Part shown: piece by piece, positions 8,449 to 57,430 of the stretch
Position numbering within the stretch: position 1 is the first letter of the stretch
Layout of the letters: each line of letters begins with the position of its first letter
From: Patescibacteria group bacterium UBA3466
Lineage (GTDB): Bacteria; Patescibacteriota; Minisyncoccia; Phycocordibacterales; UBA918
NCBI GenBank assembly: GCA_002378195.1
Contig: DFRJ01000002.1
Location: 204,816 to 268,815 of the forward strand
DNA: 64,000 nt
Direction of reading: 5' to 3'
Position numbers and translations under genes: made by a program
Notes under the pieces: generated by a model
Told to the model about the DNA's origin: nothing
Databases searched by the model: none
Seen by the model: only the letters and a program-made list of their open reading frames with translations

Positions 8449-9855
8449 TTAGCTAGTTTCAATATATCTGAGTAATGTTTTAACTGGTTCACCGGTGGCA
8501 CCTTTAACTAGTTTGTCGCCGGCGGCACTTTCCATTCGTGGTGCCATGTCGATATGGGCCCAAGGAGTCTTCTTCGGAGCGAAAAATGACAAGAAGGTAC
8601 CGCCTTCAATACAGCCTCCCCAGCGGGCAAAGTTGACTGCAATGTTAGCAATGTCGGCCCGAGTGCTCTTAAGCGAAGATTTATACTCATCCCATAAAGG
8701 TAGCGGCCACATTAAATCACCTGTGTCTTCACCAATTTCTACCAGTTTGTCTTGCAATGACTTACTCTTGGTGAGAACGGCTGATGTTTTTTGTCCAAGA
8801 GCAACTAAGGATGCTCCGGTTAAGGTGGCTACGTCAATCATGGCTTTGGGTTGATAGTATTTTTCGGCATAGGTCATAGCATCAGCCAGTACCAGTCTCC
8901 CTTCTGCATCAGTGTGCAAGATTTCGACAGTTTGTCCTGACATAGAGGTGGCGATATCACCAGCTCGCATACAGTCAGCTGAAATCGAATTCTCGGCAGC
9001 TGGAATAAGTGCTACCACATTTTTCTTTAGACCGAGTTTGGCAATGGCGCGCATGGTACCGATGACTGCTGCTCCTCCAGACATGTCCATATGCATGTCA
9101 TGCATGGCTCCTGTTGGTTTTACATTAAGGCCACCGCTATCGTAGGTGATCCCTTTTCCAATAAGTGCTACCGGTGCCGATTTTTTGGCAGCACCAAAGT
9201 ACTCGATAATTATGAGTCTTGGTTTGTCTTTTGCACCCTTCCCTACAGCGTCTAATAGCCCCATTTTGAGCTGTTTGATCTTTTTGTGATCCAACACCTT
9301 CACTTTGGCTTTTGTGCCTGAAACGGCCTTTTTTGCCGCTTCGGCTAGCTGACTCGGAGCCATGTCTTCGCCCGATGTGTTGGCAACATCTCGGGTGTAG
9401 TTTACGGCCTCTCCTGTAATAAGACCGGTCTTAAACGCCTGCTTGTCTGCTGCTTTTTTGATGCCGCAGATCATTATTTCTTTGAGAGCGTAGTCTGACT
9501 TTTTACTTTTGTAGGTTGTGAACTCGTAAGTGGCTAGTTGTAGTTGTTCAGCCAGCGTTCTGTAGTACCACTTACTACCTTTCTCTTCGAGTTTAGGGCA
9601 ACCCATTGGTCCAAGCTGGAGGGCGATATGCGTCAGTTTGTGTGACTTGGCAGCCATCACGATTGAGCGCACAAGCGTACGGTACTTCCGCACTGTCATA
9701 TCCTTCCGCTTTCCAGCTCCCATTCGGTACTCAAGCCTGCCGTCTTTTGTTTCTACTAATCGGTGCCAGTCTGGTTTGTCTTCGGTGAGTACAATTTTGA
9801 CACACTGCTTTGGTAGCTGATCGAACTCTTTGGTTGTTAAAGTGATTTTTGTCAT
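8449..9855 (-). CDS. pepA: Leucyl aminopeptidase (peptidase M17).
   Basis: NTDAEGRLVLADAMTYAE and GKGITYDSGGLNVKP are M17 active-site regions. Confidence 0.9.
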   Translation of the reverse strand: MTKITLTTKEFDQLPKQCVKIVLTEDKPDWHRLVETKDGRLEYRMGAGKRKDMTVRKYRTLVRSIVMAAKSHKLTHIALQLGPMGCPKLEEKGSKWYYRTLAEQLQLATYEFTTYKSKKSDYALKEIMICGIKKAADKQAFKTGLITGEAVNYTRDVANTSGEDMAPSQLAEAAKKAVSGTKAKVKVLDHKKIKQLKMGLLDAVGKGAKDKPRLIIIEYFGAAKKSAPVALIGKGITYDSGGLNVKPTGAMHDMHMDMSGGAAVIGTMRAIAKLGLKKNVVALIPAAENSISADCMRAGDIATSMSGQTVEILHTDAEGRLVLADAMTYAEKYYQPKAMIDVATLTGASLVALGQKTSAVLTKSKSLQDKLVEIGEDTGDLMWPLPLWDEYKSSLKSTRADIANIAVNFARWGGCIEGGTFLSFFAPKKTPWAHIDMAPRMESAAGDKLVKGATGEPVKTLLRYIETS

Positions 9856-9859
9856 ATTT

Positions 9860-11218
9860 TTAGATTTCAGCTGAATCTGACTGGTCTTTTGAAGTGAAGG
9901 TATCGATCCGATTGATGTCTCGCGGGAACAAGGTGGCTTCTTTCACGTTGGCTACGCCGCAGAACTTGGCGGTTAGTCGTTCTAGTCCCATACCCCAGCC
10001 ACCATGTGGTGGTACGCCGTACTTAAAGGCTTGGAAGTAGAAGTCGAACTTACTCAAATCTAATCCTTTAGCGCTAGCCTTTTCTTTAAGAGTAGCTAGG
10101 TCGTGTATACGCTGTCCTCCAGTGGTGATTTCCACTCCGCGGAATAGTAGGTCAAAGCTTTTGGTAAAACCTTCGTCTTCCTCGTCTTCGTAAGTGTAGA
10201 AAGGTCGCTTGCTTACTGGGTAGTGAGTAATGAAGATGAAGTCGCTCCCGAGCTCTTTCTTGGCATATTCACAGAGCCATCGTTCGTCTTCTGGTTCGAG
10301 GTCTGGCTCGTTGGTTTTGTCTTCGCCAGTTTCTTTTTTGATGAGTGCTTGGGCTTCTCTTAGCTTCATGTGTGGGAAAATATCACCCTCTGGGATGGCT
10401 GGCAGCTCCACTCCTAGTGTGTCGAGGTCGTTTTGGTTATGTTCCTTTAGTGAAGCGGTAATGTATTTCATCAAACCTGTCTCCATCCGCATCACGTCGG
10501 TATGGTCTTTGATAAAGCCCATTTCCATGTCCAGTGATGTGTATTCGCTAAGGTGACGACTAGTAGCGCTCTTTTCAGCGCGAAAGGCGGTGGCAAAAGT
10601 AAATACTCTTTCGAATACCCCAACCATAATTTGCTTGTACAACTGCGGACTGGTTGAGAGTGAGGCTTCGACGTCTTTGAAGTAATTTATTTTGAACACC
10701 TCCGCACCACCTTCCGCATCACCGCCAACAATCTTCGGCGCTTGAAATTCAGTAAAACCTTCTTGTCTCATGTATTCGCCGTAGGCCTTAGTGATGGTGG
10801 CTTGCACGCTGAATATAGCCTTTTGTTTCTCTCTTCTTAAAGTTAGGGGTCGGTAGTCTAGAAGTGTGTCGATGTTTAGTTCGGTCTCTAGATCAAATGG
10901 CATAGCTTCTGAAGCATTCAAGATTTGAATGTTGGTAATTTCGAGTTCGATGTTTCCGTTTTTGGCATTTTCATTAACCATTTTTTCTGGTCGTTCGTTG
11001 ACAATACCTGTCACCTTCAAGGCTGACTCTTCGCTTACTTGCTTGGCTACTTCCAATACTTCTGGCTTGCCAAAGACTACACCTTGAATAACGCTAGTGC
11101 GGTCTCTGAAGTCAAAGAAAGCCATTTTGCCCTGCTGACGAACCACATCAACAATCGCGTTAATTGCGACTTCTTTTCCGACGTGCTCTTTTAGGTCTTT
11201 AATTAATGTGCGTTCCAT
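9860..11218 (-). CDS. aspS: Class IIb aspartyl/asparaginyl-tRNA synthetase. AspS is favoured if the upstream T-box specifier is GAC.
   Basis: An N-terminal OB anticodon-binding domain, and class II motifs FRAEKSATSRHLSEYTSLDMEM, GGQRIHD and GLERL. Confidence 0.82.
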   Translation of the reverse strand: MERTLIKDLKEHVGKEVAINAIVDVVRQQGKMAFFDFRDRTSVIQGVVFGKPEVLEVAKQVSEESALKVTGIVNERPEKMVNENAKNGNIELEITNIQILNASEAMPFDLETELNIDTLLDYRPLTLRREKQKAIFSVQATITKAYGEYMRQEGFTEFQAPKIVGGDAEGGAEVFKINYFKDVEASLSTSPQLYKQIMVGVFERVFTFATAFRAEKSATSRHLSEYTSLDMEMGFIKDHTDVMRMETGLMKYITASLKEHNQNDLDTLGVELPAIPEGDIFPHMKLREAQALIKKETGEDKTNEPDLEPEDERWLCEYAKKELGSDFIFITHYPVSKRPFYTYEDEEDEGFTKSFDLLFRGVEITTGGQRIHDLATLKEKASAKGLDLSKFDFYFQAFKYGVPPHGGWGMGLERLTAKFCGVANVKEATLFPRDINRIDTFTSKDQSDSAEI

Positions 11219-11391
11219 AATCTTGTTTCTTACTATAGGAACGTAAAATCGCCCCTATAAAACTAATTAAATTAATAATTGATTTATAGGGGCGAACAGT
11301 CTTTCGACGAGTCGCGGTGCCACCCTACTTCGGCCGGAGCCCTTAATTGGTAAAAATGTGCACCTCCACAGTGTCATCTGCTTCTTAGGTA
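11219..11391 (-). promoter_or_regulatory. T-box riboswitch-like leader RNA (5'UTR of aspS).
   Basis: On the minus strand there is AGUAGGGUGGCACCGCG (11313-11329), which matches the T-box core AGGGUGGNACCGCG. It is followed by a terminator hairpin CGCCCCUAUAAA-21 nt-UUUAUAGGGGCG + AUUUU (11245-11294), whose 5' arm (CCCU) can alternatively pair with the T-box AGGG to form the antiterminator. A candidate specifier is GAUGACA (GAC, rc of 11372-11378). Confidence 0.6.
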
Positions 11392-11397
11392 CTTAAA

Positions 11398-11426
11398 ATA
11401 GTAGCTAATGTTATAGGTATAGTCAA
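11398..11426 (-). promoter_or_regulatory. Sigma70-type promoter for the T-box leader/aspS.
   Basis: Minus strand TTGACT-17 nt-TACTAT (-35 = rc of 11421-11426, -10 = rc of 11398-11403). Confidence 0.5.
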
Positions 11427-11427
11427 A

Positions 11428-11452
11428 TAAAAAGCGACCCGGTTAGGGTCGC
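11428..11452 (-). terminator. Intrinsic terminator after the 111-aa ORF.
   Basis: GCGACCC-taacc-GGGTCGC followed by TTTTTA on the minus strand. Confidence 0.6.
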
Positions 11453-11467
11453 GCGATGCATTACAGT

Positions 11468-12301: not shown

Positions 12302-13246
12302 CTAGCGTATGCCGATCGCTTTCCTCACCTTGTCTATCGTTTCAGAAGATTTTTCTTGAGCTTTTTTCTTGCCGGCGGCCAGTACGCTCTCTACTATCTC
12401 ATCTGAAATTGATTCTCGCTTTTCACGCATCGGAGCAATCAGGGTTTCGAGGTCTTCTACTAGAATGTTCTTTAAGTCACCGTATCGGCCTTTGTGCTCA
12501 TTGTAAATGGGCGCTAATTCCTCTTCTGTTCTCAATAGTTTGTGGATTGCGTAAACATTTTCTGGTATGTCACCTTCAGAATCAGTCACTATGCTCATCA
12601 CTGCTTTTTTAATCTCCTCTCTGGTACCAAACAAAGGAATGGTGTTGCCGTAGCTCTTACTCATTTTCTGACCATCGGTACCTGGAACCACCCCGACACC
12701 AGACAAAATCATTTCTTCAGGCTCCCTAAGAAGGTCATTATAAGCACGGTTAAATTTTCCGACTGCCTCGCGGGTATATTCGATGTGCTGACGTTGGTCT
12801 TCTCCGACCGGTACTACGTCGATATCGTAAAGAGCGATATCTGCCGCTTGCAGCATTGGGTATGTGAAGAGTCCGGCATTTGGTTCCAATCCTTTAGCAA
12901 CTTTATCTTTGTATGAATGAGCCTGCATCAAAAATGGCACGGTGACCAAGCAGTTAAATACCCAAGCCAGCTCCATATGGTCCTGGTTGTCTGATTGTCG
13001 GAAGATCACCACCTGTTCCGGGTCAACACCAACAGCCAAATAGTCCCTGACTACGTTATAGACATTTTTACGTAGTTCTTCCGGGTCGCGTAGGCTGGTG
13101 AGCGAGTGGTAGTCAGCCACCATCAAGTAACTATCGTAATCTTGATAGATATCAAGAAATGGCTTAAGGGCTCCGAAGTAATTTCCGATATGTAGAGTTC
13201 CAGATGATTGTAGGCCGGTAAGGAGGCGTTTTTTGGTGTTAGTCAT
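12302..13246 (-). CDS. trpS: Tryptophanyl-tRNA synthetase.
   Basis: TGLQSSGTLHIGNYFGA (HIGH motif) and KMSKS. Confidence 0.9.
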   Translation of the reverse strand: MTNTKKRLLTGLQSSGTLHIGNYFGALKPFLDIYQDYDSYLMVADYHSLTSLRDPEELRKNVYNVVRDYLAVGVDPEQVVIFRQSDNQDHMELAWVFNCLVTVPFLMQAHSYKDKVAKGLEPNAGLFTYPMLQAADIALYDIDVVPVGEDQRQHIEYTREAVGKFNRAYNDLLREPEEMILSGVGVVPGTDGQKMSKSYGNTIPLFGTREEIKKAVMSIVTDSEGDIPENVYAIHKLLRTEEELAPIYNEHKGRYGDLKNILVEDLETLIAPMREKRESISDEIVESVLAAGKKKAQEKSSETIDKVRKAIGIR

Positions 13247-56910: not shown

Positions 56911-56917
56911 TGCGTTG

Positions 56918-56990
56918 TGGACCGTACTGGACTTGAACCAGCGACCTCTTCCATGCCATGGAAGCACTCTACCAGCTGAGCTAACGGCCC
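56918..56990 (-). tRNA. tRNA-Ala (anticodon GGC). CCA is not encoded.
   Basis: The rc is GGGCCGT-TA-GCTC-AGCTGGTA-GAGT-G-CTTCC-ATGGCAT-GGAAG-AGGTC-GCTGG-TTCAAGT-CCAGT-ACGGTCC-A. A G3:U70 pair is present. Confidence 0.85.
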
Positions 56991-57342: not shown

Positions 57343-57356
57343 AGTTGTATAAACGG

Positions 57357-57430
57357 TGGACCAGAGAGGACTCGAACCCCCGGCCTCCTCAGTGCAAATG
57401 AGGCGCTCTAGCCAACTGAGCTACTGGCCC
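57357..57430 (-). tRNA. tRNA-Ala (anticodon TGC). CCA is not encoded.
   Basis: The rc is GGGCCAG-TA-GCTC-AGTTGGCTA-GAGC-G-CCTCA-TTTGCAC-TGAGG-AGGCC-GGGGG-TTCGAGT-CCTCT-CTGGTCC-A, with a G3:U70 pair. Confidence 0.85.

Follow-up and report, generated by a model that had tools for sequence, protein, structure and literature searches.

The question raised by a 64-kb stretch of contig DFRJ01000002.1 from Patescibacteria group bacterium UBA3466 (the whole stretch is referred to here as the window) was how its aspartyl-tRNA synthetase gene, aspS, is controlled. A first-pass annotation had proposed that an Asp/Asn-tRNA synthetase gene is preceded by a T-box leader that has a promoter of its own and competing terminator and antiterminator folds, that the truncated Stem I of this leader resembles that of actinobacterial ileS leaders, that an Asp codon in the specifier loop makes the gene aspS rather than asnS, and that the genome might belong to the candidate phyla radiation (CPR). 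T-boxes are a textbook case of RNA recognizing RNA by shape plus sequence. In current models, the codon-anticodon contact of three bases does not suffice by itself and is reinforced either at the tRNA elbow, by the platform of Stem I (classes I and II), or by a Stem II S-turn clamp (classes III and IV). From the comparative analysis presented here, we concluded that the element on the minus strand upstream of aspS (11426 to 11219) is a real, conserved, and stripped-down T-box, which joins a sensor of the tRNA 3′ end to a tiny Asp-codon hairpin and is without both of the extra tRNA-gripping domains. Its architecture is new within a known riboswitch family, and it can serve as a natural test of the tRNA contacts that a T-box needs. 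We consider it very probable that the element senses tRNA-Asp and controls aspS, probably along with an aminopeptidase gene, mainly by transcription attenuation.

A T-box core and an Asp specifier precede aspS

The leader was compared with loci encoding relatives of the window's aspartyl-tRNA synthetase (AspRS), 67 of them genomic and 80 metagenomic. The 17-mer AGUAGGGUGGCACCGCG, on which the T-box assignment had leaned, contained a perfect match (14 of 14 positions, 11326 to 11313) to the 14-nt T-box consensus AGGGUGGNACCGCG (PMC11297988). This consensus occurred once in the 64 kb and never in 100 dinucleotide-preserving shuffles. The T-box sequence was also found upstream of aspS in 47 fetched relatives (excluding three copies of the window's own locus), and the assignment was thereby upheld. 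Of the related aspS loci, 143 had 150 nt or more of upstream sequence; a T-box core preceded aspS in 59 of these, nearly all of them from Patescibacteria, and the 59 represented 52 distinct leaders. The UGGC at 11322 to 11319, the predicted site for pairing with the tRNA 3′ end GCCA, was present in the bulge of all related leaders except L149, which had UGGU. Bacterial tRNA-Asp has G73 as its discriminator base, and UGGC fits this base.

The predicted Stem I was as short as had been claimed and carried the specifier in its terminal loop. Specifically, ACC (11390 to 11388) paired with GGU (11364 to 11362) to form a C-stem, the strands UAAGAA (11387 to 11382) and GGA (11367 to 11365) formed a putative kink-turn (K-turn), and a 4-bp helix of GCAG (11381 to 11378) and CUGU (11371 to 11368) closed the apical hexaloop AUGACA (11377 to 11372). 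Helices were evaluated with slid alignments and 500 shuffles as controls. Across the 46 aligned Stem I modules, the Stem I helix was 96% paired, with compensatory changes at three of its four pairs, whereas slid controls were 26 to 53% paired. Inclusion of the C-stem gave 92% pairing and five compensatory pairs. The variants of the helix were GCAG/CUGU, ACAG/CUGU, GCAG/CUGC, GUGG/CCAC, CCGG/CCGG, GAGG/CUUC, and GCGG/CCGC. The C-stems of the relatives had 2 to 3 bp and covarying pairs, and their K-turn strands read xUGAA (5′ side) and GGA or UGA (3′ side). A GA in each strand, the signature of the K-turn, was conserved in at least 90% of the leaders, and Rfam aligned it to the K-turn of its T-box model. 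As judged by this signature, Stem I has a basal K-turn, and its three-dimensional kink is predicted. All complete leaders from Patescibacteria shared the tiny Stem I; two upstream sequences were cut by contig ends, and the leader of an Anaerolineales locus (L047/L150) differed.

The specifier was GAC in 43 of the 46 modules and GAU in the remaining 3 (L027, L029, and L101), and an Asn codon was never found in the loop. The apical loop read N-U-GAC-A in 43 leaders and GAUGAUAA in 3, and the U directly 5′ of the specifier (11376 in the window) was nearly invariant. In the GAU-type leaders, an AAC at the loop/stem border might be read as an Asn specifier; this reading was ruled out, because the C of the AAC belongs to the first pair of the stem and because UGAUA and UGACA align with each other. 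With an Asp codon as specifier, the leader should read tRNA-Asp rather than tRNA-Asn, although the enzyme charges both. The proposal that the gene is aspS and not asnS was correct, in that it encodes a non-discriminating AspRS (Table 1).

The promoter that had been proposed for the leader lies downstream of the intrinsic terminator of the preceding gene, which indicated that the leader belongs to its own transcription unit. The -10 hexamer is 7 nt from Stem I, and transcription would start near 11391 to 11392, which is 1 to 2 nt ahead of Stem I. In four relatives (L005, L014, L092, and L148), a TTGACT -35 element was found at the same distance from Stem I. Because the promoter directly abuts Stem I in several lineages, there is no room for a hidden long Stem I farther upstream.

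Two exclusive folds share one covarying strand

RNAfold gave the 152-nt leader a minimum free energy (MFE) of -50.1 kcal/mol (z = -4.1), in a structure that contained the Stem I hairpin with its specifier loop, a 3-bp hairpin, and the terminator. When the 3′ arm of the terminator was omitted, the MFE structure became a textbook antiterminator with a UGGCACC bulge, and the folding check suggested in the first-pass annotation thus produced each of the expected structures. Helix A1 of the antiterminator consisted of GUAGGG (11328 to 11323) and CCCUAU (11291 to 11286) and carried the 7-nt bulge; helix A2 consisted of GCGA (11315 to 11312) and UCGC (11295 to 11292) and continued into a small GAAA-loop hairpin. 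The antiterminator was 96% paired across 48 leaders, with nine compensatory pairs (slid controls, 36 to 49%), and the terminator was 91% paired across the same 48 leaders, with 11 compensatory pairs (slid controls, 34 to 46%). For Stem I, the antiterminator, and the terminator alike, neither the observed percentage of pairing nor the observed covariation score was attained in any of 500 shuffles.

The 5′ arm of the terminator overlaps the 3′ strands of the antiterminator, and the common strand (11295 to 11286) covaried with both of its partners. The claimed competition was therefore visible as two mutually exclusive folds, both of which covaried. The terminator was the more stable of the two (-23.5 versus -13.4 kcal/mol for the antiterminator), so the ON state needs outside stabilization, as it does in every T-box. 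A U-rich tail followed the terminator hairpin in 41 of 47 leaders, and the hairpins were strong and 40 to 47 nt in length.

Between Stem I and the T-box sequence, a 20-nt linker takes the place of Stem II and IIA/B and is followed by Stem III (Table 1). A hairpin of differing sequence and length (3 to 27 bp) was found at the Stem III position in 43 of 48 relatives; the automated search found none in the other five. The RAG motif lay ahead of Stem III in 25 of the 43 automatically delimited leaders, and AA followed Stem III in every aligned leader. RAG and AA also flank Stem III in solved discriminator domains (PMC7778990 and PMC11297988).

Table 1. Positions of the leader features, the flanking signals, and the genes of the aspS locus
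Feature	Position	Strand	Sequence or detail	Basis
Intrinsic terminator of the upstream 111-aa open reading frame	11434..11452	-	GCGACCC-UAACC-GGGUCGC, then UUUUU	Terminator scan
Sigma-70-type promoter	11398..11426	-	TTGACT-17-TACTAT	Promoter scan
Ultrashort Stem I	11362..11390	-	29 nt	RNAfold, Rfam alignment, covariation
Specifier and conserved 3′ purine	11372..11375	-	GAC (Asp codon), 11375-11373; A11372	46 Stem I modules
Single-stranded linker	11342..11361	-	GCACAUUUUUACCAAUUAAG, 20 nt; 3′ end is the RAG motif (AAG) before Stem III	Unpaired in both folds
Stem III	11332..11341	-	GGC-UCCG-GCC, 3 bp, then GAA	Folds
T-box sequence	11313..11329	-	AGUAGGGUGGCACCGCG, 17 nt	Sequence
Antiterminator	11286..11328	-		MFE of truncated leader, covariation
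Terminator hairpin and U-tract	11245..11295	-	UCGCCCCUAUAAAU...GUUUUAUAGGGGCGA (U11295..A11249); UUUU, 11248-11245	Fold, -23.5 kcal/mol
Segment 4	11234..11243	-	CGUUCCUAUA, G-U-rich copy of the terminator 5′ arm, right after the U-tract	Fold, 28-leader alignment
Start-codon region of aspS	11211..11221	-	AUUAUGGAACG; AUG, 11218-11216	Fold; can pair with segment 4 plus the next AUAGU, -9.0 kcal/mol
Non-discriminating aspartyl-tRNA synthetase (aspartate--tRNA(Asn) ligase), aspS	9860..11218	-	452 aa	NF003483 (NCBIfam), 483 bits versus a cutoff of 353
M17 leucyl aminopeptidase, pepA	8449..9855	-		Start 4 nt past the aspS stop

These folds suggested how the leader would work. Once transcription has started, the apical loop of Stem I would offer GAC-A to the anticodon GUC of tRNA-Asp, and about 50 nt downstream the UGGC of the bulge would pair with the free GCCA end if the tRNA is uncharged. 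Uncharged tRNA would stabilize the antiterminator and keep CGCCCCUAU from its stronger partner, which would allow read-through into aspS. Charged tRNA could not stabilize the antiterminator; the terminator and its UUUU tract would then form, and the transcript would end near 11245. The sequence parts, the two exclusive helices, and their covariation across about 50 genomes were observed, as were the Asp-only specifier and the lack of a long Stem I and of Stem II. The site where transcription starts, its termination in vivo, the binding of tRNA, and the sufficiency of two short base-pairing contacts are inferred.

A third helix and the aspS start codon

Segment 4 can pair with the terminator 3′ arm UAUAGGGGCG (11259 to 11250; -12.4 kcal/mol), and this pairing represents a third alternative helix (3:4), which was not part of the first-pass annotation. 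In the 28 leaders that directly precede aspS, helix 3:4 was 87% paired, compared to 43 to 63% in slid controls, and had four compensatory pairs; the duplex had a z score below -2 in 23 of 46 leaders. Segment 4 was absent where another open reading frame (ORF) or an RNA element follows the leader. A promoter-like sequence inside the terminator (TTTATA-18-TATAGT, 11261 to 11232) was considered as the cause of segment 4 conservation, and it was ruled out because segments 3 and 4 covaried as RNA pairs.

The aspS AUG is located 27 nt past the terminator U-tract and has no obvious Shine-Dalgarno sequence. In the window (11211 to 11243), the CGUUCC of segment 4 and the AUAGU that follows can pair with AUUAUGGAACG (helix 4:5), which would bury the aspS start when the terminator has formed. 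An unconstrained fold of the leader plus the start region (-60.9 kcal/mol) contained the terminator and a buried AUG, and a fold in which the antiterminator was enforced (-49.6 kcal/mol) contained helix 3:4 and an open AUG. Helix 4:5 beat shuffled sequences (z < -2) in only 6 of the 28 leaders, and its mean z score was -0.7. After read-through, the freed 3′ arm of the terminator would probably pair with segment 4, which in the window would also keep that segment off the start codon. A relay of helices 3:4 and 4:5 that adds a second, translational layer of control is weakly supported, and we treat it as a lead and not as a finding.

A rival explanation gives these helices a larger part, in that the element would act mainly or equally on translation. 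The "terminator" would then be the first link of the relay; in the presence of charged tRNA, helix 2:3 would form and leave segment 4 free to cover the AUG (helix 4:5), and uncharged tRNA would lead to helices 1:2 and 3:4 and to an open AUG. A switch of this type has no short co-transcriptional window, which would account for a Stem I that can do without the fast-docking platform, as in classes III and IV, whose members are mostly translational (PMC10482949). The conservation of helix 3:4 with compensatory changes, the buried and open AUG of the two window folds, the lack of an obvious Shine-Dalgarno sequence, and the UUAU tract of one subclade are all in line with translational control. However, the poor performance of helix 4:5 against shuffles is not, and such pairing as it shows may result incidentally from the fixed Met-Glu-Arg start of the protein. 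In addition, U-rich tails directly follow strong hairpins in most leaders, a canonical intrinsic terminator is used 180 nt upstream in the same genome, and leaders followed by another ORF or RNA element do without segment 4. We consider control mainly or equally at the level of translation to be unlikely, albeit a serious alternative, and we favor transcription attenuation as the main activity of the leader.

Points against a functional T-box

Several observations weighed against the idea that the leader is a tRNA-sensing attenuator. Stem III of the window has only 3 bp and was the shortest of the set, and the terminator is followed by only four U residues, with UUAU at this position in one subclade. 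No tRNA-Asp gene was found in the window, in 116 related loci, or within about 20 kb past both window ends, so the match of GAC and UGGC to tRNA-Asp (anticodon GUC, G73) rests on general knowledge. Published work indicates that transcriptional T-boxes need the distal platform of Stem I and that T-boxes with a short Stem I hardly bind tRNA if Stem II is missing (PMC7583486, PMC10482949, and PMC11297988). Because the window leader has neither the platform nor Stem II, its tRNA binding might be too weak or too slow for a co-transcriptional decision. Finally, the leader did not match the Rfam T-box model RF00230 at the gathering score.

In the case of Rfam, the first-pass annotation had suggested a search for an RF00230 hit above the gathering threshold, and none was obtained (22.8 versus 93 bits). 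A local search with the same model gave the leader an E value of 0.0033, and its alignment covered the K-turn and the Stem I base as well as Stem III, T-box, and antiterminator; 72 Stem I positions were deleted, and Stem II and IIA/B were skipped. When 17 related aspS leaders were compared to RF00230, they scored 24 to 55 bits, and none reached the gathering score. We concluded that the low score reflects a model built on T-boxes with a long Stem I and not the absence of the element, and we judged the threshold to be an invalid criterion here, as a real element falls below it. Eighteen minimal leaders were used to build a covariance model, which had a single match in the window, with 87.3 bits (E = 6e-21) and a next best score of 11.6 bits, and in the related loci it matched only aspS leaders. 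The TBDB database was built from Rfam-type matches and from a class II model run on Actinobacteria (PMC7778990). With the tested relatives at or below 55 bits and a gathering score of 93, leaders like these would be missed by TBDB and by standard annotation.

The concern about weak binding could also be met by a helper that replaces the missing domains, such as an L7Ae-family protein that binds the K-turn or another CPR-specific protein or RNA. The RNA alone would then bind tRNA too weakly. Consistent with this explanation, the K-turn signature is highly conserved despite the absence of a Stem II that it could position, a truncated Stem I without Stem II has barely detectable affinity for tRNA (PMC7583486), and shortening of Stem II abolishes tRNA binding by the ileS T-box of Mycobacterium tuberculosis (PMC11297988). 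In the 150 loci, however, no candidate gene was linked to the leader, and the neighboring genes varied except for pepA. We also know of no T-box that requires a protein. We regard the need for such a helper as doubtful.

Minimal leaders and the loss of Stem II

The region between the K-turn and the T-box separated the leaders into two groups, one of about 22 leaders with 70 to 177 nt and the other of about 25 leaders with 30 to 65 nt. The longer leaders carried S-turn strands (GAA ... AGUAGA) and a IIA/B-type pseudoknot, and Rfam aligned their Stem II and IIA/B at 38 to 55 bits (for example, in L023, L028, and L013). In the minimal leaders, which include that of the window, an A-rich single strand was followed by Stem III, and the terminator was kept. 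The window's region of 31 nt was the second shortest of 46, and no AGUA/GAA S-turn was present in its 20-nt linker.

Traces of the domain persisted in some leaders. A collapsed remnant, GAAUAGUAAC, was found in the minimal leaders L005 and L071, and of the domain L054 retained the pseudoknot part alone. These remnants pointed to an origin of the minimal form by deletion. When the AspRS proteins were clustered by identity (unweighted pair group method with arithmetic mean), loci with Stem II leaders, minimal leaders, and no leader were interspersed; for example, L073 has a minimal leader and neighbors L074, which has Stem II. Some close relatives (L069, L008, and L079-L091) lacked any leader. 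The interspersed groups implied that the Stem II domain was lost more than once and that the whole leader was also lost repeatedly.

Because some close relatives have lost the leader entirely, and because its Stem III is the shortest and its linker nearly so, the window leader could be the decaying relic of a Stem II T-box, a constitutive and leaky attenuator that does not sense tRNA; this is very improbable, since a relic would not retain a 14-of-14 T-box and a GAC loop, and since about 25 minimal leaders, whose AspRS proteins are 42 to 89% identical to that of the window, have without exception an intact specifier loop, K-turn, T-box, and bulge and two intact alternative helices with compensatory changes.

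Our broader interpretation of the minimal leaders is a more tentative one. We propose that they represent a fifth T-box class, which would have arisen repeatedly in Patescibacteria by loss of Stem II and would use two short Watson-Crick contacts with tRNA to pass one decision to the terminator and, by way of a relay of helices 3:4 and 4:5, also to the start codon; we hold this proposal slightly less firmly than its opposite. In a fifth class of this type, the contacts would be those between the anticodon and the hexaloop codon, possibly with a fourth pair between U11376 and A37, and between the NCCA end and the bulge, with possibly no docking on the elbow and no Stem II clamp. Candidates for what offsets the missing contacts are the pair between A37 and the U before the codon, a K-turn-binding protein, and a less strict kinetic requirement should translation be under control as well.

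If the fifth class is real, the minimal functional T-box, up to and including the antiterminator, would measure about 105 nt, which is far smaller than structural models imply. A conserved natural family without platform or clamp that apparently decides co-transcriptionally would directly test the rule that the codon-anticodon contact has to be reinforced, and close relatives with and without Stem II provide ready-made paired controls. With these leaders, T-box regulation also extends to the candidate phyla radiation, a group whose regulatory RNAs have barely been charted and in which, to our knowledge, the T-box family has not been described. The fact that the Rfam gathering score and the databases derived from it miss the whole group adds to the significance of the minimal leaders, as does the link between amino acid sensing and a probable AspRS-aminopeptidase operon in a genome-reduced organism.

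The comparison of related loci yielded several other observations. In 10 loci (L010, L011, L036, L071, L073, L074, L076, L078, L125, and L147), a small ORF of 85 to 130 aa, to which no function is assigned, was located between the T-box terminator and aspS, and the leader in such loci would control a two-gene unit. Several of the products looked acid-rich, which is an impression by eye. A conserved two-hairpin RNA element of about 85 nt, with 26 predicted pairs and compensatory changes at 10 of them, was found at L017:1388-1490, L032:1398-1495, L064:1381-1490, L071:606-715, L096:126-240, and L004:1262-1365. It sits between the T-box terminator and aspS in five of these loci and within the leader, between Stem I and Stem III, in L004. 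The element overlaps a tiny ORF (MSKGA.ATIANL.P), in which the differences look synonymous. It had no Rfam match in L004, L032, and L064, and its core sequence was absent from the window. Upstream of the Anaerolineales aspS (L047/L150, a Chloroflexi metagenome-assembled genome), a different T-box-like core, AAAGGUGGCACCACGG, was found at a distance of about 195 nt. The minimal model gave no match to this element, which is presumably a conventional T-box.

The probable aspS operon and its surroundings

The nearest named relatives of the AspRS came from Candidatus Kaiserbacteria, Paceibacteria, and Nomurabacteria, in agreement with the CPR-like genome that had been proposed, and the identical protein was present on TARA and JGI marine contigs, the longest of which had 638 kb. 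On sequence grounds, the host is a marine bacterium of the Patescibacteria/CPR.

The gene order aspS-pepA was found in 54 related loci, whether or not a T-box was present. In the window, the aminopeptidase gene is probably in one operon with aspS under the T-box leader, and the two genes would be co-transcribed. A signal of amino acid starvation may thereby also raise peptide breakdown.

Two other genes of aminoacyl-tRNA synthetase type were identified in the window, a GluRS-type gene (437 to 1936) that overlaps murG and a 314-aa tRNA-synt_1b gene (12302 to 13246, minus strand), and neither had a T-box-like leader. The minimal-leader model, run with all filters off, detected no further T-box of the minimal type in the 64 kb or in flanks of about 20 kb, so aspS is the only such target there. 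The only tRNA genes in the window were those for tRNA-Ala with anticodons GGC and UGC, at 56917 to 56990 and 57355 to 57430 (minus strand) and 365 nt apart; these two genes were also the only matches in an Rfam search of the window at the gathering score.

Comparison with known T-box classes

In a 2023 paper, four classes of T-boxes were defined by the architecture of Stem I and Stem II (PMC10482949). A long Stem I is common to classes I and II; in class I it carries an elbow-docking platform and is accompanied by Stem II, and in class II (glyQS, restricted to glycine) a single-stranded linker replaces Stem II. Class III, as found in ileS of Nocardia and Mycobacterium, depends on Stem II and presents the specifier in the apical loop (5 to 6 nt) of a short Stem I, and the Stem I of class IV is intermediate in length (PMC10482949). 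Classes I and II generally act on transcription, and classes III and IV act mostly on translation (PMC10482949); according to a 2020 review, transcriptional T-boxes generally require a long Stem I (PMC7583486). We found no literature on T-boxes in CPR/Patescibacteria or on T-boxes that lack both domains, which is weak evidence of novelty because coverage was incomplete.

The likeness to actinobacterial ileS that had been proposed held for Stem I but not for the remainder of the leader. Like the class III ileS leaders of Nocardia farcinica and M. tuberculosis, the window leader has a short Stem I without the distal platform (interdigitated T-loop motif [IDTM]), a hexaloop specifier followed by a purine, a basal K-turn, and a discriminator domain in the order RAG, Stem III, AA, T-box bulge (PMC10482949 and PMC7583486). 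The class III leaders, however, are specific for Ile, occur in Actinobacteria, need the S-turn of Stem II as well as the IIA/B pseudoknot, and mostly sequester the Shine-Dalgarno sequence, whereas the window leader is specific for Asp, occurs in Patescibacteria, and has a 20-nt strand and an intrinsic terminator in place of these features. The approximately 22 relatives with Stem II have the class III decoding module, yet they are Asp-specific and have terminators, which is uncommon.

Class II, as represented by Bacillus subtilis glyQS, shares with the window leader the single-stranded linker in place of Stem II, the competition between terminator and antiterminator, and the order Stem I, linker, Stem III, antiterminator (PMC10482949). 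It differs in its long Stem I, in the interdigitated T-loops that contact the tRNA elbow, and in its GGC glycine specifier; the window leader has no platform and has GAC. The ability of glyQS to function without Stem II has been explained by its strong GGC:GCC duplex (PMC7583486), whereas GAC provides only two G-C pairs. Class I, as represented by B. subtilis tyrS and by RF00230, has in common with the window leader the T-box sequence, the 7-nt bulge, helices A1 and A2, the competition with a terminator, the K-turn, and a specifier that matches the synthetase. In contrast to class I, the window leader is without 72 Stem I positions of the model, Stem II, and IIA/B.

Outside the T-box family, attenuators of the trp leader type also relay a decision downstream through a chain of overlapping helices (1:2, 2:3, and 3:4), a likeness that we use as an analogy only. 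Their input is ribosome stalling on a leader peptide instead of tRNA binding, and helix 3:4 of the window leader follows the terminator. As judged by its predicted structure, the window leader combines the Stem I of class III with the linker of class II and a terminator, and it fits none of the four classes.

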